A DNA stretch of 64,000 bases from an uncultured Chloroflexia bacterium (lineage in GTDB: Bacteria; Chloroflexota; Anaerolineae; CG2-30-64-16), in contig CAWEMM010000014.1 in the NCBI GenBank assembly GCA_963810095.1, positions 160,001 through 224,000 on the forward strand, given 5' to 3'. The notes below the pieces were generated by a model, which was not told the DNA's origin, did not search any database, and worked only from the letters and a program-made list of their open reading frames with translations. Each line of letters begins with the position of its first letter. Position 1 is the first letter of the stretch. The translations under genes and the position numbers were made by a program. Below, one piece after another: positions 10,999 to 18,506 of the stretch.

Positions 10999-12336
10999 AT
11001 GCTAGAAGCGGTTCGTAATGCGTTCCGTTTGCCGGACCTGCGACGCAAGCTGTTGGTCACCCTGGGCATCCTGGTGATCTACCGCCTGCTCGCACACATC
11101 CCGGTGCCGGGCGTGAATACCCAGGCGCTGCAAACGATCTTCAGCTCGAACCAGCTGCTGGGCCTGCTTAACCTGCTGTCGGGCGGCGCGCTGCAGAACT
11201 TCTCGGTGATGGCCATGGGTGTTTACCCGTACATCACCGCGTCGATCATCATCCAGTTGCTCATCCCGATCATTCCGCAGTGGCAAGAGCTGCAGAAGGA
11301 AGGCGATGCGGGCCGCAATAGACTCAACCAGTACACCAACTGGCTGACCATCCCGCTCGCGCTGCTGCAGGCTTTCGGCCAGTCGTCGCTGTTGACCCAG
11401 AGCACCAGCCAGGCCGGCCCCGTCCTGTCGAAGTTCGGCTTCGCCAGCTTTCCGCTCGAGACCATCGTGATCCTGGTCTCGCTGACCGCGGGTACGATGA
11501 TCGCCATGTGGTTGGGCCAGATCATCACCCAAGAGGGTATCGGCAACGGCATCTCGATCATCATCTTTGGCGGCATCATCGCGGCCATGCCCACGAACGT
11601 CGTCAACACGACGATCCAGGGCGGCGTCCTGCAGCTGCTGGTCTTCATCCTGGTGACGGTCCTGACTGTCGCCGTCATCGTGGTCGTGCAGGAAGGGCAG
11701 CGGCGCATTCCGGTGCAATACGGCAAGCGGGTGCGCGCGATGCGGGGCAACCGGCTGATGGTGGTCGGCGGCCAGAGCACGCATGTGCCGATCCGGGTGA
11801 ACTCGGCCGGCATGATCCCGCTGATCTTCGCGTCGTCCATGCTGATCTTCCCGAGCACGATCGCCAGCTACTTCGTCAACTCGCCGTCGGCTTTCGTGTC
11901 GTCCGTGGCGAATGCGGTGTACAACTTCTTCACGCCGGCCCACGCCGCGTACTGGCTGCTCTACTTCTTGTTGGTCATTGCGTTCACGTACTTCTACACG
12001 GACGTGATCTTCAAGCAGCAGAACCTGGCCGAGACGCTGCAGCGCCAGGGTGGCTTCATCCCGGGCATCCGCCCCGGTTACAACACCGAGAAGTACCTGA
12101 ACACCGTGCTGTCCCGCATCACGCTGGTCGGCGCGCTGTTCCTGGGCTTCGTCGCCATCCTGCCGTGGCTCGTCCACCTGTTCTTGGGCGGGGGCGCGTC
12201 GGGCCGGGCGGCCAACAGCACCCTGCTGATCTCCAGCACCGGCCTGCTGATTGTGGTCGGCGTCGTGCTTGACACGATGAAGCAACTGGAAGCGCAGCTG
12301 TTGATGCGCCATTACGAAGGCTTCATCCGGAAGTAG
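10999..12336 (+). CDS. secY: Preprotein translocase SecY
   Basis: MGVYPYITASII, GIGNGISIII, GGFIPGIRPG; multiple TM segments. Confidence 0.99.
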   Translation: MLEAVRNAFRLPDLRRKLLVTLGILVIYRLLAHIPVPGVNTQALQTIFSSNQLLGLLNLLSGGALQNFSVMAMGVYPYITASIIIQLLIPIIPQWQELQKEGDAGRNRLNQYTNWLTIPLALLQAFGQSSLLTQSTSQAGPVLSKFGFASFPLETIVILVSLTAGTMIAMWLGQIITQEGIGNGISIIIFGGIIAAMPTNVVNTTIQGGVLQLLVFILVTVLTVAVIVVVQEGQRRIPVQYGKRVRAMRGNRLMVVGGQSTHVPIRVNSAGMIPLIFASSMLIFPSTIASYFVNSPSAFVSSVANAVYNFFTPAHAAYWLLYFLLVIAFTYFYTDVIFKQQNLAETLQRQGGFIPGIRPGYNTEKYLNTVLSRITLVGALFLGFVAILPWLVHLFLGGGASGRAANSTLLISSTGLLIVVGVVLDTMKQLEAQLLMRHYEGFIRK

Positions 12337-12353
12337 CGCGATTCGGGCAGGCG

Positions 12354-12362
12354 TGATATAAT
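12354..12362 (+). promoter_or_regulatory. Extended -10 promoter for adk-map-rpmJ
   Basis: TGATATAAT (TGnTATAAT consensus) upstream of adk. Confidence 0.6.
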
Positions 12363-12385
12363 GATGGTTCTGTAACCGGGCAACG

Positions 12386-12448
12386 AGAGACCAGGTTTCT
12401 TCAGGCGAGGCCGTCACGCCGTGACGATCGCACGGAAACCTGGTTTCT
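12386..12448. repeat. Family A copy 2, halves separated by a 33 bp insert
   Basis: AGAGACCAGGTTTCT...GGAAACCTGGTTTCT with internal CGTCAC-GCC-GTGACG hairpin. Confidence 0.75.
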
Positions 12449-12473
12449 TACGGGTAGTGACCAGGGGGCATCG

Positions 12474-13151
12474 ATGGTAGAACAGACAAAGCCGTTGTTT
12501 ATCGTCATGCTCGGCGCCCCGGGCGCCGGTAAGGGCACCCAGGCACGCATGCTCTCGGAAGCGATGCACCTCCCGCAGGTTTCGTCGGGCGACATCTTCC
12601 GCGAGAACCTGAAGAACCAAACGCCGCTGGGTCTGCTGGCCAAGGGGTACATGGACAAGGGCGAGCTGGTGCCCGACGACGTGACCATTAACATGGTGAT
12701 GGACCGGTTGAGCCGGGCGGATGCTGCCGGCGGCGTGGTGTTGGACGGGTTCCCGCGCACGCTGGCCCAGGCCGCCGCGCTGGATCGGGCGCTGGCCGAG
12801 CGGGGCTTGGGTATCCAGGTGGTGCCCTTGCTCGAGGTCGGCGACGAGGCCTTGATCAACCGGTTGGCCGGCCGGCGCGTCTGCAAAGACTGCCAGGCCA
12901 TGTACCACGTCGAGTTCAATCCGCCGACAGTCGAAGGCAAGTGCGACAAGTGCGGCGGCGAGTTGTATCGGCGGGCCGACGACGAACCCGAGACCGTGCG
13001 CAACCGGCTGTTCGTGTACTACAAGCAGACGGCGCCGTTGATCGGCTACTACTTCGCTCACGATCTGCTGGTCCCGATGAACGGCGACCGGCCGATGGAG
13101 CAGGTGCAAGCCGACCTGCTGGCCGCGGTAGCGCCGGCGACGGGCGTCTGA
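12474..13151 (+). CDS. adk: Adenylate kinase (zinc LID type)
   Basis: GAPGAGKGTQA, LDGFPRT, CxxC...CxxC lid. Confidence 0.99.
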   Translation: MVEQTKPLFIVMLGAPGAGKGTQARMLSEAMHLPQVSSGDIFRENLKNQTPLGLLAKGYMDKGELVPDDVTINMVMDRLSRADAAGGVVLDGFPRTLAQAAALDRALAERGLGIQVVPLLEVGDEALINRLAGRRVCKDCQAMYHVEFNPPTVEGKCDKCGGELYRRADDEPETVRNRLFVYYKQTAPLIGYYFAHDLLVPMNGDRPMEQVQADLLAAVAPATGV

Positions 13152-13186
13152 TCTGGATGCGTGGCCTCGGCGACGCGTAACCAGGG

Positions 13187-13963
13187 GTGATGCATGATCA
13201 TCTTAAAAGTCGGCCTGAGATCGCGCAGATGCGCGAGGCGGGGCGCATCGTTGCCCGGGTGCACGAGGCTATGCGTGAGCTGGTCCGGCCCGGCGTAACG
13301 ACTGCGGAATTGAACACGCGGGCCGAAGAGATCATTCGCCAGCACGGTGCGATCCCGACGTTTCTGGGGTATCCGCACACCGGAAAGAACGACTTTCCGG
13401 CCAGCATCTGCGCCTCGATCAACGAGGAACTGGTGCACGGCATTCCCAGTGCGAAGCGTTGGCTCGAGCCGGGCGATATCATCAGCGTCGACGTGGGCGC
13501 CACGTACAAGGGCTGGGTCGGTGACTCGGCCTGGACCTATGCGGTGGGCCCGATCGATGCCGATAGCCAGGCGTTGATGGATGCGACGGAAGGCAGCCTG
13601 TGGGCGGGCATCGCCCAGGCCCGGGCGGGCAACTTCCTGGCCGATATCTCGAAGGCGATCGAGACGCACATCGTGCAGCGCGGCTTCCACGTGGTCCGTG
13701 AGTACACGGGGCATGGCGTCGGCCGGCGCATGCACGAAGAACCGAATGTGTTGAACTATGTCCCGGCGGGGGTGGGCCGCGGGCCCAAGCTGAAGCCGGG
13801 CATGACGTTTGCGCTGGAGCCCATGGTGGGCACAAGCACCTGGCGCACGAAGGTGATGTCGGATGGCTGGCTGGTCGTTATGGCTGACGGCAAGCGCGCC
13901 GCCCACTTCGAACACACGATCGCCGTCACAGACGGCGAGCCCGAGATTCTGACAGTCTTGTAG
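13187..13963 (+). CDS. map: Methionine aminopeptidase type I (true start probably ATG 13194 with a 1-nt error)
   Basis: [29 protein letters not shown]. Confidence 0.97.
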
Positions 13964-13965
13964 GG

Positions 13966-13998
13966 AGAAATCGGGTTTCTGCGAGAAACCGGCTTCCT
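13966..13998. repeat. Family A copy 3 (degenerate)
   Basis: AGAAATCGGGTTTCT-GCG-AGAAACCGGCTTCCT. Confidence 0.8.
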
Positions 13999-14025
13999 GT
14001 GACACGAGGACACTGGAGAAAGAAC

Positions 14026-14139
14026 ATGAAAGTCCGACCGTCGGTCAAGCGCATTTGCGACAAGTGCAAGATCATCCGGCGCCACGGCACGGTGCAGGTA
14101 ATCTGCGTTAACCCGAAGCACAAGCAGCGCCAAGGGTAA
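14026..14139 (+). CDS. rpmJ: 50S ribosomal protein L36 (not in the ORF track)
   Basis: Manual translation [37 protein letters not shown]. Confidence 0.98.
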
Positions 14140-14153
14140 TTGGAGGATAGCGA

Positions 14154-14532
14154 ATGGCTCGTATCGCTGGTGTAGACCTGCCGCGAGATAAGCGGGTTGA
14201 AGTAGGCCTGACTTATATCTTCGGCATCGGCCCTACGTCGAGCAGAGAGATCCTGACGATGACGGGTGTCAACCCGGACGTCCGGATCAAGGACCTGGAC
14301 GAGACGCAGGTTGCAAAGCTGCGTGACGTCATCGAGCGCAACTACAAGGTAGAAGGCGACCTGCGCCGCGAGGTGGCGATGAACATCAAGCGCCTGCAGG
14401 AAATCGGCAGCTACCGCGGTCTGCGCCATCGCCGCAATTTGCCGGTTCGCGGCCAACGCACGCGCGACGAACGCCCGCACCAAGCGAGGCGCTCGCCGCA
14501 CCGTTCCGGGCAAGAAGCGCGCCCGCAAGTAA
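14154..14532 (+). CDS. rpsM: 30S ribosomal protein S13, frameshift near 14466
   Basis: [10 protein letters not shown]...[17 protein letters not shown] then NARTKRG in a shifted frame. Confidence 0.97.
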
Positions 14533-14541
14533 TCGTAAGCT

Positions 14542-14588
14542 GGGGCGACCGTAGTGGTCGCCCGGGCGGCCGCTACGGTCGCCCCTAC
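14542..14588. repeat. Family C REP-like double palindrome
   Basis: GGGGCGACCGTAGTGGTCGCCC/GGGCGGCCGCTACGGTCGCCCC then TAC. Confidence 0.7.
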
Positions 14589-14601
14589 TGGGAGAAGAGG
14601 A

Positions 14602-15024
<423 letters not shown>

Positions 15025-15114
15025 TTCTTATTTCGCCACAGAGCAGGCGGAGGCGGCCGAGGGACATCCTTCCGGCGCCTGCGTGAACTCTGAGGCTAAA
15101 CTCTAAAGGTAATT

Positions 15115-15204
15115 GGGAGAGGGAAGAAGGTTGCCAAGCCGTAAACCTCTCGTCCTGGTTCCTTAAGCGACTCCCAAGAGTCGCACGCAACCAATTGGTT
15201 GCGC
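15115..15204 (+). promoter_or_regulatory. Candidate S4 (rpsD) leader RNA mimicking 16S rRNA helix 16
   Basis: GAGG-GAAGAA-GGTT-GCCA-AGCC-GTAAA-CCTC at 15119..15149, followed by two hairpins before the rpsD SD. Confidence 0.65.
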
Positions 15205-15223
15205 ATTGATCTGGAGGATCAAG

Positions 15224-15859
15224 TTGGCACGAACGATTGATCCGGTGTGCAGGCTCTGCCGCCGGGAAGGAATGAAGCTCTTTCTGAAGGGTGAGCGGTG
15301 CTACTCGCCCAAGTGCTCCGTCGAGAAGCGCACCTATGCGCCCGGCATGCACGGCAAGAAGGGTGCGTTCAAGCACAAAGAGTCCGATTACGCAATGCAG
15401 CTCCGCGAGAAGCAGAAGGCGCGGCGTTTCTATGGCGTGCAAGAGCGCCAGTTCCGCCGCTACTTTGCCGGTGCGCAGCGCATCAAGGGTATGACCGGCG
15501 TCAACCTGTTGCAGACACTCGAGCGCCGCCTGGACAACGTCGTCTACCGCCTCGGCATCGCCGATTCCCGGCCCCAGGCGCGGCAGCTTGTCCGCCACGG
15601 CCATTTTGCGCTTAACGGCCGCAATCACAACGTACCGTCATACCTGGTCCAGATCGGCGACGAGATCGCGGTGCGCGAGGGCAGCCGCACGAACGGCTAC
15701 TTCAAGAGCATTGCCGACCATCTCGGCCAGCGCTCGGTTCCGGAATGGCTGCAGTTTGATGAATCTCGCCTGGTGGGCCGCGTCGTTGGGACGCCCGACC
15801 GCCAAGCCATCGAAATCCCGCTCAAAGAGCAGCTCATCGTCGAGTACTACAGCCGGTAA
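15224..15859 (+). CDS. rpsD: 30S ribosomal protein S4 (zinc-binding type)
   Basis: [38 protein letters not shown]; TTG start. Confidence 0.98.
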
Positions 15860-15864
15860 GGCGG

Positions 15865-15960
15865 AATAGAACGCAGGTTGAACTGATGAAACTGGTTGAC
15901 ATGATCATCATGGACAGCGATCAGGTAAATCAGCAAGATCAGTTCGATCAGCGTGCTATT
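15865..15960. repeat. Family B element copy 3
   Basis: AATAGAACGC...GCGTGCTATT. Confidence 0.8.
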
Positions 15961-15982
15961 CTTTATAAGGGAGGGTGCTTCC

Positions 15983-16981
15983 TTGTTGGATTTTGTGCTG
16001 CCTAAGATTGAGCGCGAAGCGAGCGCCCGTAACTACGGGAAATTCGTCATCGGCCCGATGGAGAGCGGTTATGGCATCACGCTGGGCAATGCCCTGCGGC
16101 GGGTGCTGTTGTCCTCGCTCCCCGGCGCGGCGGTGAGCTCGATTCGCATTAGCGGGGTTCATCATGAGTTTTCGCCGATTCCAAACGTCCGCGAGGATAC
16201 GACCGCGCTGCTGCTGAACGTCAAGCAGCTGCGGTTGAAGTCTGAGCTGGACGAGCCGGTTCGGCTGCACGTCGATGTGCGCAACGAAGGTCCTGTCACT
16301 GCCGGCGACCTGATCTGCCCGCCTGAGGTGGAGATCGTTAACCCGGAACTGCTGCTGCTGACCGCGGATGCGCCCGACGTCGACCTCGACCTCGAACTGA
16401 CCGTCAGCCGCGGCCGGGGTTACTCGCCCGCGGAAGAGCGTGGCAAGCTGCCGCTGGGCGAAATCCCGGTGGACGCCATCTACGCGCCGGTTCGCAAGGT
16501 CAATTATGCCGTCTCGCGGGCGCGTATCGGCCAGAACACGAATTACGATCGCCTGGTGCTCGAGATCTGGACCGACGGGACCATTGCACCTGAGGCCGCG
16601 CTGCGCGAGTCCGCACGTATGCTCGTCCGCCACCTGACCCTGGTCGCGGGCGCGGACGTGCTGCCGCCCGAGCAGGCAGCGGCCGAGGGCCGCGGGGTGC
16701 CGAGCCGGATCTACGACGTGCCCATCGAGGAGCTGGAGCTGAGCGTCCGGGCGTACAACTGCCTGAAGCGCGCCGGCATTACCAAGGTGGGTGAGGTCCT
16801 GGAGCGGCTGGAGAAGGGTGAGGAAGAAGTCCTCGCCATTCGCAACTTCGGGCGCAAGTCCTTGAACGAACTGGTGGATCGGCTGGACCAGAAGGGTTTC
16901 CTGTCGGCCATCTCCTACCAGCCCACGGTTACGGCCGAGCTGGATGAGGACGCCGAAGACGCCGAAGCCGAGCTAGCATAG
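15983..16981 (+). CDS. rpoA: RNA polymerase alpha subunit
   Basis: GYGITLGNALRRVLLSSLPG, LSVRAYNCLKRAGI, NFGRKS. Confidence 0.99.
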   Translation: MLDFVLPKIEREASARNYGKFVIGPMESGYGITLGNALRRVLLSSLPGAAVSSIRISGVHHEFSPIPNVREDTTALLLNVKQLRLKSELDEPVRLHVDVRNEGPVTAGDLICPPEVEIVNPELLLLTADAPDVDLDLELTVSRGRGYSPAEERGKLPLGEIPVDAIYAPVRKVNYAVSRARIGQNTNYDRLVLEIWTDGTIAPEAALRESARMLVRHLTLVAGADVLPPEQAAAEGRGVPSRIYDVPIEELELSVRAYNCLKRAGITKVGEVLERLEKGEEEVLAIRNFGRKSLNELVDRLDQKGFLSAISYQPTVTAELDEDAEDAEAELA

Positions 16982-17051
16982 CACTTTCCGCCACGAATCT
17001 CACGATGACCCAAATTCGTGGAATTCGTGGCAGGTATCATGGAGTATACAC

Positions 17052-17537
17052 ATGAAACATCGAGTTGCAGGACGCAAGCTTGGCCGGGATTCGGCGCAAC
17101 GCTCTGCCCTGATGAAAGGTCTGGTTACCGAGCTCTTCCGGCACGATCGCATTAGCACGACCGCGGCCAAGGCGCGTTTCATGCGCGGCGACGCCGAGCA
17201 CCTCATCACGATCGCTAAGCGTGGTTTGGCCGAGGGCGGTAACAACGTACATGCGCATCGCTTGGCCGCCAAGGTCATCACCGACCCAGACGTGGCCGCG
17301 CGGCTGTTCAACGAAATCGCGCCCCGCTTCGCCGAGCGACCCGGGGGCTACACCCGCATGATCAAGATCGGCCCGCGCGTCGGCGACGGCGCCGAGATGG
17401 TTGTGATCGAGTTGGTCGATCGTGGCGACGGCAAGGGCGCCAGCAAGGAAGCCGGCAAGACTGCCGCGCGGCCAAGCATCGGCTCTCGCATGCGCCAGGC
17501 GACGAACCGGATTCGCCGGGGTCGCGAGGAAGAATAG
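17052..17537 (+). CDS. rplQ: 50S ribosomal protein L17
   Basis: MKHRVAGRKLGR...RPGGYTR...GDGA; C-terminal extension. Confidence 0.98.
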   Translation: MKHRVAGRKLGRDSAQRSALMKGLVTELFRHDRISTTAAKARFMRGDAEHLITIAKRGLAEGGNNVHAHRLAAKVITDPDVAARLFNEIAPRFAERPGGYTRMIKIGPRVGDGAEMVVIELVDRGDGKGASKEAGKTAARPSIGSRMRQATNRIRRGREEE

Positions 17538-17651
17538 GACGCAGATTGAACTGATTGAACTGCTGGCAGGATCCTTCGCGGTAAAGATCATGTCTCTCGG
17601 TTCAATCAGCTAGATCGGCGGACCGTGCCGAACGTATCAACAGCGTACTTT
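17533..17651. repeat. Family B element copy 4 (longer variant)
   Basis: AATAGGACGCAGATTGAACTGATTGAACTG...GCGTACTTT. Confidence 0.75.
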
Positions 17652-17664
17652 ACCAGGTTACAAG

Positions 17665-18441
17665 TTGCCATACTACCGAGCTACCGTCGCTTATGACGGC
17701 ACCGAATTTCTCGGGTTTCAGCTCCAGGCGGCCGTCAGGACCGTTCAGGGCGAGTTGGAGGCGGCGGTTCTCCGGGTGAGTGGAGCCGAGGCTCGAGTCG
17801 TCGGCTCTGGTCGCACTGATGCGGGCGTGCATGCGGCGGGCCAGGTCGTCGGGTTTCGCGGCGAATGGCGCCACACGACGTCCGACCTGCACCGGGCTCT
17901 GAATGCCGTGCTGGCTCGCGACGTTGCGGTGGTCGACCTGGACGAGGCGCCGGAGACGTGGCACCCGAGGTTCAGCGCCAAGTGGCGGCATTACCGCTAC
18001 TCGGTGCGAAACGCCGCCTGGCGCTCACCGCTCACCCGGCACTACGCCTTGCACCTGGGCCAGCCCTTGCAGCTGGCCAACCTGCAAGCGGCGGCGCGGG
18101 TCTTTGTCGGCGAGCATGATTTCGCCAGCTTTGGCCGGCCGATGCAGGACGGCGAGAGCACCCGGCGGATGATCTACCGCTCGGGTTGGCGTCAAGAAGG
18201 CGATATGCTCTTCTATGACGTCATCGGCAACGCCTTCCTGCGAGGGATGGTGCGGTCGTTGGTCGGGAGCATGTTGCGTGTGGGTCTGGCCCAGTCGACA
18301 GTCGAGCAGTTGCTCGAGACACTGGCGGCGAAGGATCGCACCCTGGCGGCGCCACCCGCAGCAGCGTGCGGCTTGTGCCTGATGCATGTTGAATATGACG
18401 AACCGCAAGGTTCTGCGTCTAGGCGGACTTGCGAAGGATAG
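17665..18441 (+). CDS. truA: tRNA pseudouridine(38-40) synthase
   Basis: YDGTEFLGFQ, SGRTDAGVHA, FLRGMVR. Confidence 0.97.
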   Translation: MPYYRATVAYDGTEFLGFQLQAAVRTVQGELEAAVLRVSGAEARVVGSGRTDAGVHAAGQVVGFRGEWRHTTSDLHRALNAVLARDVAVVDLDEAPETWHPRFSAKWRHYRYSVRNAAWRSPLTRHYALHLGQPLQLANLQAAARVFVGEHDFASFGRPMQDGESTRRMIYRSGWRQEGDMLFYDVIGNAFLRGMVRSLVGSMLRVGLAQSTVEQLLETLAAKDRTLAAPPAAACGLCLMHVEYDEPQGSASRRTCEG

Positions 18442-18506
18442 AACGCAGGCGGCGGGGCAACCCCAGGGTTGCACGCTTGCGGTACGAGTTACGAGGAGTC
18501 TGAACA

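Follow-up and report, generated by a model that had tools for sequence, protein, structure and literature searches.

Locus and hairpins of the rpsK-rpsD spacer

In the genome of an uncultured Chloroflexia bacterium (assembly GCA_963810095.1), we analysed 64,000 nucleotides of contig CAWEMM010000014.1, here called the window, in which the genes adk, map, rpmJ, rpsM and rpsK are followed by a 199-nt spacer and then by rpsD, rpoA and rplQ. The spacer precedes rpsD, the gene of ribosomal protein S4, and holds a 35-nt hairpin that resembles helix 16 (h16) of 16S ribosomal RNA (rRNA) and is probably the operator of an S4 autoregulatory leader. A preliminary description made from the sequence alone had drawn this hairpin at 15119..15149 and taken it for a candidate S4 autoregulatory RNA mimicking h16; layout and coordinates were all correct, and the outer stem proved longer, at 6 bp. 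The features of the locus, numbered from the first base of the window, are as follows.

14602..15024, + strand: rpsK (S11), upstream neighbour in the alpha cluster; open reading frame (ORF) and translation, and tblastn finds rpsK in relatives
15035..15096, + strand: long imperfect hairpin right behind the rpsK stop, outside the conserved element; minimum free energy (MFE) fold, site variable among relatives
15117..15151, + strand: helix-16-like element; fold, 16S match, covariation, uniqueness in the genome and conservation
15132..15137, + strand: UGCCAA of the apical loop, complement of the start region UUGGCA; six pairs at -8.2 kcal/mol by duplexfold
15167..15203, + strand: two lineage-specific linker hairpins (15167-15184 and 15186-15203); sequence and MFE fold
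15206..15222, + strand: small hairpin with the Shine-Dalgarno (SD) sequence GGAGGA (15213-15218); MFE fold
15224..15229, + strand: rpsD start region UUG GCA, with TTG as start codon and proposed pseudoknot partner; Met-Ala-Arg aligns with ATG-GCN-MGN of relatives
15224..15859, + strand: rpsD (ribosomal protein S4), the presumed regulated gene; homologue in 41/41 genomes

The whole spacer folds into five hairpins with an MFE of -90.3 kcal/mol (z -4.7), a value equalled by none of 200 shuffled sequences. In the helix-16-like element, the core of the outer stem is formed by GAGG (15119-15122) and CCTC (15146-15149) and is extended by G15117 and A15118 pairing with C15151 and T15150, so that the full stem spans 15117-15122/15146-15151. 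It encloses an internal loop with GAAGAA on the 5' strand (15123-15128) and GUAAA on the 3' strand (15141-15145), followed by an inner stem of GGTT (15129-15132) and AGCC (15137-15140) capped by the apical loop GCCA (15133-15136).

Match of the element to helix 16 of 16S rRNA

The genome of the organism contains two 16S genes, whose h16 reads GAGG GACGAA GGCC UUCG GGUU GUAAA CCUC, compared with GAGG GAAGAA GGUU GCCA AGCC GUAAA CCUC in the leader. With the inner stem-loop left aside, only one position is different, A in the leader versus C in the rRNA at the equivalent of position 412, and the flanking bases beyond the core (G on the 5' side, U on the 3' side) are likewise identical. The bases of the inner stem are unlike those of the organism's own h16, with pairing retained. 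The apical loop is also different: the h16 loops of these genomes are UUCG, CUUG or GAAA-like and never GCCR. No similarity to helices h4 or h17 was found flanking the element. In Escherichia coli K-12 rrsH, h16 consists of GUAU from G406, GAAGAA at 410-415, then GGCC, UUCG and GGUU, GUAAA at 428-432 and GUAC ending at 436, in agreement with the sequence quoted in the preliminary description. By these coordinates the outer stem is the counterpart of 406-409/433-436, and the loop strands GANGAA and GUAAA are those of 410-415 and 428-432, while G15117, A15118 and U15150 are the equivalents of 404, 405 and 437. The organism's own h16, with its identical outer stem, is closer to the leader than that of E. 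coli. As a separate observation on the 16S comparison, one record labelled E. coli contains a 16S stretch 88% identical to that of the organism, against 60-80% for nearly all other records.

The resemblance coincides with the part of h16 that S4 touches. According to Bellur and Woodson (2009; PMC2665224), S4 contacts nucleotides 404, 405, 406, 437 and A412 of 16S rRNA and the backbone of G410, A411 and 425-430, and deletion of 410-432 weakens S4 binding by a factor of over 380. Since these positions map to the parts kept in the leader, what the leader conserves of h16 is the half contacted by S4; the leader's conserved nucleotides coincide with S4-contacting rRNA nucleotides except at the 405 equivalent.

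We considered whether the outer stem tracks the h16 of each genome and rejected this, because, among the 14 members of the order for which a 16S match was obtained, several differ from their leader at the second pair. Three of them (G041, G042 and G021) have GAGG/CCUC in 16S versus GGGG/CCCC in the leader, and two (G010 and G024) have GCGG/CCGC in 16S versus GAGG/CCUC in the leader. These mismatches imply that only pairing is selected at this position, and that the exact identity seen in the window is partly coincidence.

Uniqueness in the genome and covariance models

To search beyond the locus we used a loop-agnostic descriptor, which consisted of a 4-bp stem, then GANGAA, then a 3-bp stem carrying an apical part of 8-23 nt, then GTAAA and the closing stem. 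It has three matches on both strands of the 6,131,393-base genome, namely the two h16 copies and the leader, and none in the reversed genome. Covariance models were built from leaders only, with R1 derived from 23 leaders and R3 from 55 leaders of both phyla discussed below; E-values are rough because calibration was shortened, and all genome sets are samples. R1 gives the window leader 64.8 bits, and the second and third ranks in the 6.1-Mb genome are again the two h16 copies, each at 16 bits and an E-value of 6.4 that is not significant alone. Leader-only models also pick up 16S h16 in other genomes, at two loci with R1, in 6 of 10 weak hits with the model R2 and in 4 of 12 hits with R3.

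Thirteen further weak hits (L078, L079, L082-L086, L088, L089, L091, L092, L096 and L219) were set aside as noise with no S4 gene nearby, among them L083, which precedes a glycosyltransferase-like ORF. As an observation in its own right, L089 and L092 (genomes G257 and G274, from other Chloroflexota classes) share GAAGAAAGUGGCCA(U/C)(G/A)CUGUAAAC, which resembles the upper part of the leader; tblastn found no S4 gene in either locus, and the shared sequence lies away from rpsD.

Conservation in Chloroflexota

An S4 homologue was found in 41 of 41 relatives, and the nearest named records are metagenome-assembled genomes (MAGs) labelled Anaerolineae or Chloroflexia/Chloroflexota. The motif is present at all 23 loci from the same family, in spacers that vary around it in length (78-236 nt) and content, and a strict expression of it had no match in seven loci from other families of the class. 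With R1, exactly one hit was obtained in 36 of 37 genomes of the order, which consists of one family, the single miss being a 70%-complete genome. In the class sample, 31 of 151 genomes had a hit at E<=0.5. Among the 26 new loci of the class, 16 lie 11-67 nt upstream of rpsD and span six further families (f15, f28, f38, f41, f49 and f51), two fall in 16S h16 and eight lack an S4 gene in their vicinity, so that the leader is carried by 20 of the 151 sampled genomes. The preliminary description had named lack of conservation of the motif upstream of rpsD in relatives as a refutation of its reading, and these counts for the order and the class do not refute it. Every significant hit lies 11-129 nt upstream of rpsD, one per genome. 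A sample of 150 other genomes of the phylum, mostly from other classes, gave no hit near rpsD.

Four other Chloroflexota loci with an ATG-start rpsD (L026, L101, L103 and L108) carry a sister motif 40-65 nt before that gene. It consists of a GCGGG/CCCGC-type stem, GA(A/U/G)GAC in place of GANGAA, a long and variable apical part and then GUAAA; the apical part lacks GCCA, with L101 having GCCG. The sister motif is detected by neither R1 nor R2.

Occurrence before rpsD in Acidobacteriota

The element is not confined to Chloroflexota. When 80 loci fetched by S4 protein alone were scanned with R2, hits were found in the two nearest Chloroflexota and in nine loci labelled Terriglobales, Terriglobia, Acidobacteriales or Acidobacteriota, each lying immediately before rpsD. 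The typical Acidobacteriota form reads CCGG-GAUGAA-GGGU-GAAGCCAAA-CCU-GUAAA-CCGG, followed by GGAG and then UUGGC. Its stems differ from those of the Chloroflexota leaders, and GANGAA, GUAAA and GCCR are common to both. The h16 of their own 16S (L179) has the outer stem GGAG/CUCC, unlike the leader, and identical loop strands. In a second 16S sequence (L180, from G331, the genome of L177, a MAG labelled Terriglobia), h16 differs from that of L179, possibly a sign of mis-binned rRNA.

Sampling more widely with R3, we found the leader before rpsD in 7 of 151 Acidobacteriota genomes, with four more hits being 16S h16. In the order to which G394 belongs, 17 of 61 genomes have it, always before rpsD (17/17), so the element occurs in part of this order. 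A plain pattern search (GCCAA..GTAAAC..TTGGCNMG) in 401 Acidobacteriota genomes gave 16 matches versus 14 in the reversed control, which is not above chance, and from it we used only the matches followed by GGAG and an S4 gene, which made up 7 of the 10 loci fetched. The S4 proteins of leader-bearing Acidobacteriota are 52-57% identical to that of the window, compared with 55-61% in those without a leader; as identity is no higher in the leader-bearing genomes, nothing points to a recent transfer of rpsD. The presence of the leader in two phyla may be ancient or convergent.

Covariation of the stems

The preliminary description had noted that the loop nucleotides are kept while the stems change and still pair; both parts are borne out in the leaders, where GANGAA and GUAAA are fixed and the two stems covary. 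In an alignment of 49 leaders to R1 (A2), which is biased towards the model, 91.6% of cells are paired and five pairs are changed on both sides. Its covariation score was reached by none of 500 shuffles, and sliding the partner by 1-3 columns lowered pairing to 25-64% (maximum 63.5%). Because A2 leans towards the model, we added an alignment-free count anchored on the two invariant loop strands, which covers 41 distinct cores from both phyla.

In this count the pair next to the internal loop is G-C in 41 of 41 cores, and the pairs further out vary: outer pair 3 is AU in 15 cores, GU in 6, GC in 8 and CG in 12, and outer pair 4 is GC in 30, CG in 6 and UA in 5. For the inner stem, pair 1 is GC in 25, AU in 3, GU in 11 and AC in 2, pair 3 is UG in 22, CG in 5, GC in 13 and AU in 1, and a fourth pair is mostly unpaired. 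GANGAA varies at its third base only (U 17, A 11, C 10), the same position, 412, that varies among 16S genes. GUAAA is invariant in all 41 cores, as the descriptor required, and it shows no variation in the R1 hits either, whose alignment did not require it.

Complementarity of the apical loop to the rpsD start

A point that was not part of the earlier observation is that the apical loop is complementary to the start of rpsD. The loop is GCCA in 48 of 49 Chloroflexota leaders and GCCR in all 17 leaders from the Acidobacteriota order; GCCR complements UGGC, that is, the last two bases of the start codon and the first two of the following alanine codon. All 49 Chloroflexota leaders are followed by a UUGGC start, and most of their loops read GCCAA, giving five pairs, while UGCCAA and UUGGCA in the window form six.

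We then compared loop and start codon in 110 loci picked by S4 protein alone and scanned with the loop-agnostic descriptor; the counts come from few, related lineages and are not independent events. Motifs with GCCA precede a TTG start in 34 of 34 cases, and motifs without GCCA precede ATG in 4 of 4, the latter all being the GANGAC variant of other Chloroflexota. The 72 loci with no motif start with ATG (61), GTG (6) or TTG (5). The only leader with a GUG start (L210) has the loop GCCAC, the complement of GUGGC. We regard pairing between loop and start as plausible on this sequence evidence, and as unproven.

Two other pairings were tried and rejected. The CCUCUC strand as an anti-SD sequence, or GGAGAGG as a decoy SD, does not fit the Acidobacteriota outer stems (CCGG, GAUCGG/CCGAUC), which have no such complementarity. 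Pairing of the loop with UUGG just 5' of the stem was discarded because UUGG is kept only in family f1.

Linker, neighbouring sequences and expression

The outer stem and the start codon are separated by 17-34 nt in 36 of 49 leaders, with a median of 32 nt, and a linker that is short and roughly constant fits a pseudoknot and a steric block alike. The 13 longer linkers, including the 72 nt of the window, all fold into inserted hairpins. Such inserts are the two hairpins of the window between the element and the SD, GCGACTC/CCAA/GAGTCGC at 15167-15184 and CGCAACC/AATT/GGTTGCG at 15186-15203. Both are present as the preliminary description had said, and neither is conserved in relatives, even within the genus. 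SD-bearing hairpins before rpsD are found in only part of the relatives. A scan for promoter-like and terminator-like sites found none in the rpsK-rpsD spacer.

Hints of expression come from assembled Logan contigs of public runs (RNA libraries X8, X12 and X16, and the DNA library X1). Metatranscriptome contigs of relatives bridge the end of rpsK to the motif and the motif to the start of rpsD, with cover on motif bins and not on variable bins, and no run holds half of the query words. The contigs are compatible with co-transcription of rpsK and rpsD and give a hint of the motif in RNA libraries, where DNA carry-over may contribute.

The site behind rpsK, which in the window holds the long hairpin 15035-15096, is occupied in many relatives and in unrelated Acidobacteriota by long hairpins built from tandem repeats of 5-8 nt and inverted copies of them (L005, L008, L011, L015, L018, L021, L119, L120, L133, L139 and L145). 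None of these hairpins has a T run after it, and they may have a role in messenger RNA (mRNA) processing or stability. Elsewhere in the cluster, rpmJ directly follows map (13964-13998) with no infA between them, whereas the common order is adk-map-infA-rpmJ, and the gap between rpmJ and rpsM is 14 nt. The rpsD-rpoA spacer (15860-15985) is about 125 nt long and AT-rich, with GATCAG repeated. The start of rpoA is apparently a TTG at 15983 or 15986, behind AAGGGAGGG, and TTG is thus used by rpsD and rpoA alike.

Interpretation and alternative explanations

We conclude that the hairpin at 15117-15151 is probably the operator of an S4 autoregulatory leader situated inside the alpha cluster, with an unusually complete mimicry of h16. 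The mimicry itself, the position before rpsD, the occurrence as one copy, conservation, covariation of the stems and the complementarity of loop and start were computed directly, and the proposal that this is a candidate S4 autoregulatory RNA was supported by all computational tests able to refute it. What the element reproduces is the lower half of h16, with its closing G-C pairs, both strands of the internal loop (GANGAA and GUAAA) and the equivalents of G404, G406 and U437. As we envisage it from the sequence, S4 present in excess over free 16S rRNA would bind this mimic, and the bound protein would block initiation at the weak UUG start of rpsD, some 70 nt downstream in the window. The loop GCCAA would pair with UUGGC, made up of the start codon and the first two bases of codon 2, and S4 may stabilise this pseudoknot, so that the start codon would be hidden and the SD would stay in the linker, comparable to entrapment by S4 in E. 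coli. Any effect on rpoA and rplQ is likewise a prediction. As a more far-reaching and tentative proposal, the element may define a new class of S4 operator, shared by or convergent in two distant phyla, that joins two strategies of S4 control hitherto met only apart: h16 mimicry, of the Bacillus type though much fuller, and a pseudoknot concealing the start codon, of the E. coli entrapment type.

Several points weigh against this interpretation. For the S4 of E. coli, h16 alone is not a full site: binding to the five-way junction is abolished when h3 or h4 is missing, both being needed for tight rRNA binding (PMC2665224). The 405 equivalent, a base contacted by S4, is A in nearly all leaders versus U in rRNA, and within the order the second outer pair does not follow the genome's own rRNA. 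The element is missing from 131 of the 151 class genomes sampled and was not found before rpsD in the phylum sample, so it is dispensable. We also count against it that neither a promoter nor a terminator nor the end of a transcript could be located there. For the pseudoknot in particular, three leaders with a UUG start have the loop GCCAC, with the fifth pair mismatched (L009, L013 and L070), two others have GCCAU (L077 and L224), and all six Acidobacteriota leaders with an AUG start keep GCCR with no U opposite the A. Moreover, the UGGC core is fixed by coding and hence cannot covary with the loop.

The mismatches at the fifth pair and the GCCR loops kept before AUG would be expected if the leader bound S4 and formed no pseudoknot, the hairpin, 17-34 nt or a compact stack of hairpins upstream of the start, blocking 30S docking sterically or by competition. 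On this account, which we consider rather unlikely, GCCR would be a direct protein contact or a copy of another rRNA segment, and UUG would be kept only for the effective repression that a weak start allows. A candidate source of such a copy is 16S 517-522, which we take to read GCCAGC, and loops reading GCCAGC do occur in four leaders (L071, L213, L226 and L231). The Bacillus S4 leader, too, is reported to function without a pseudoknot (PMC10931766; PMC3849166). S4 contacts h18 at nucleotides 508-512, however, and not at 517-522 (PMC2665224), and since the h16 loops of these genomes are never GCCR, the loop lies outside the h16 mimicry. GCCR is in addition the exact complement of the sole coding-fixed segment near the start, and the one leader with a GUG start has GCCAC, both of which speak for pairing with the start codon.

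It is improbable that the hairpin has a structural role in the mRNA with no binding of S4, for instance as a processing or stability signal or as a standby site or translation enhancer of the internal rpsD cistron, with a convergent likeness to h16. Such an explanation would accommodate the poor performance of h16 alone as an S4 site in the E. coli experiments (PMC2665224) and the abundance of other large hairpins in the rpsK-rpsD spacers studied here, and S4 binding to the element is itself predicted from sequence. It would leave unexplained why conservation falls precisely on the nucleotides of the h16 half that S4 contacts, why the motif occurs elsewhere in the genome only in 16S, and why in two phyla it goes with rpsD and precedes no other gene at significant scores. 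Very improbable, in our judgement, is a loading site at which S4, acting like NusA, keeps RNA polymerase reading into rpsD-rpoA-rplQ. Antitermination activity of S4 has been described (PMC10931766) and the element does lie inside an operon, after a long hairpin, but the spacer has no terminator-like site, and the short fixed distance to SD and start, the weak UUG and the complementarity of loop and start point to translation initiation. A likeness by chance, or the remnant of an rRNA gene, might be thought of for a motif as short as 31-35 nt; with no descriptor match in the reversed genome, conservation with stem covariation across two phyla, an inner stem-loop unlike rRNA and no flanking similarity to h4 or h17, we give this practically no weight.

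If the interpretation as an S4 operator is correct, the element would be a minimal S4 site of 35 nt, useful for structural work and for the origin of rRNA mimicry. S4 nucleates assembly of the 30S subunit, and its autoregulation is a textbook case. With the whole internal loop and the closing pairs copied in 35 nt, the element would state which part of the five-way junction S4 recognises alone, and it would fill a gap for Chloroflexota and Acidobacteriota. Its natural variants, with UUG, GUG and AUG starts and different loops, offer a test of start-codon pseudoknots as a recurrent answer to control by S4. The element could also be added to RNA family libraries, with better annotation of soil and sediment MAGs as a result.

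Comparison with known S4 regulatory RNAs

In the comparison with Rfam that the preliminary description had proposed, no family of Rfam 15 matches the leader: none was found at E<=10 in 12000-18500, none at gathering threshold in the whole window, and neither RF00140 (Alpha_RBS) nor S4-Clostridia (RF03140) gave a covariance-model match to the spacer. Rfam 15 also found nothing on any leader among 20 S4 loci of other taxa and, at E<=1, among Acidobacteriota and variant loci. The only related hit was a sub-threshold Alpha_RBS match before rpsM in L101 (positions 189-259; 27.8 bits versus a gathering score of 38, E 0.0099), at the expected start of rpsM some 940 nt upstream of rpsD; this Chloroflexota MAG is one of those with the sister motif. 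The earlier statement that no S4 leader was known for the phylum agrees with the full-text literature, in which we found no report of one for Chloroflexota or Acidobacteriota (subscription journals and supplements being outside the scope of the search). According to a 2013 survey, Acidobacteria are the only phylum with none of the E. coli-type regulators of ribosomal proteins (PMC3616713).

The known S4 operators are mutually unrelated, and only the tetranucleotide GUAA ties those of Firmicutes and Fusobacteriales to rRNA. An rpsD leader of Bacilli that interacts with S4 was reportedly described by Grundy and Henkin in 1991 and 1992. For this leader, autoregulation by S4 has been demonstrated experimentally, and the GUAA in its bulge is the same as in the bulge of 16S (Deiorio-Haggar et al. 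2013; PMC3849166). In common with it, the element described here lies directly upstream of rpsD, with the SD shortly downstream and GUAA in a bulge or internal loop as the proposed S4 contact. Going by its description, the Firmicutes leader is set apart by its two hairpins, with proposed pseudoknots that are not supported, by a monocistronic rpsD and by a range reported there as only Firmicutes, Tenericutes and Thermotogae (PMC3849166). The element here, unlike that leader, unites both h16 loop strands and the closing pairs in a single hairpin, lies inside the alpha cluster and has a GCCR loop complementary to the start.

Among the candidates of Eckert and Weinberg (2020; PMC7247131), whose r-leaders were taken into Rfam 14.1/14.3 (PMC7779021), S4-Fusobacteriales is likewise a leader predicted for S4, and its GUAA is considered an imitation of rRNA. 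[quoted passage not shown] The Bacteroidia and Flavobacteria candidates occupy the same place, as hairpins immediately preceding rpsD and followed further on by rpoA and rplQ, but are described as lacking meaningful rRNA similarity, and they have no Rfam hit here; the Clostridia S4 candidate is also without clear rRNA mimicry (PMC7247131).

The E. coli alpha-operon leader (RF00140) is a translational operator of S4 that works through entrapment by a pseudoknot that includes a start codon, and this pseudoknot would correspond in function to the pairing of loop and start that we propose; it differs in lying before rpsM, in its double pseudoknot, in having no rRNA mimicry and in its restriction to Gammaproteobacteria (PMC3616713). 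With 16S h16 itself (nt 406-436), the element shares the outer stem, the GANGAA/GUAAA internal loop, the closing pairs and the equivalents of G404, G406 and U437, and it differs in having no h3, h4, h17 or h18 context, A for U at 405, and GCCR instead of a UUCG-type tetraloop. An S4 r-leader that imitates the GUAA of rRNA is thus already known from Firmicutes and Fusobacteriales (PMC7247131; PMC3849166), and what is previously undescribed is this structure, the extent of its mimicry, the taxa in which it occurs and the complementarity of its loop to the start of rpsD.

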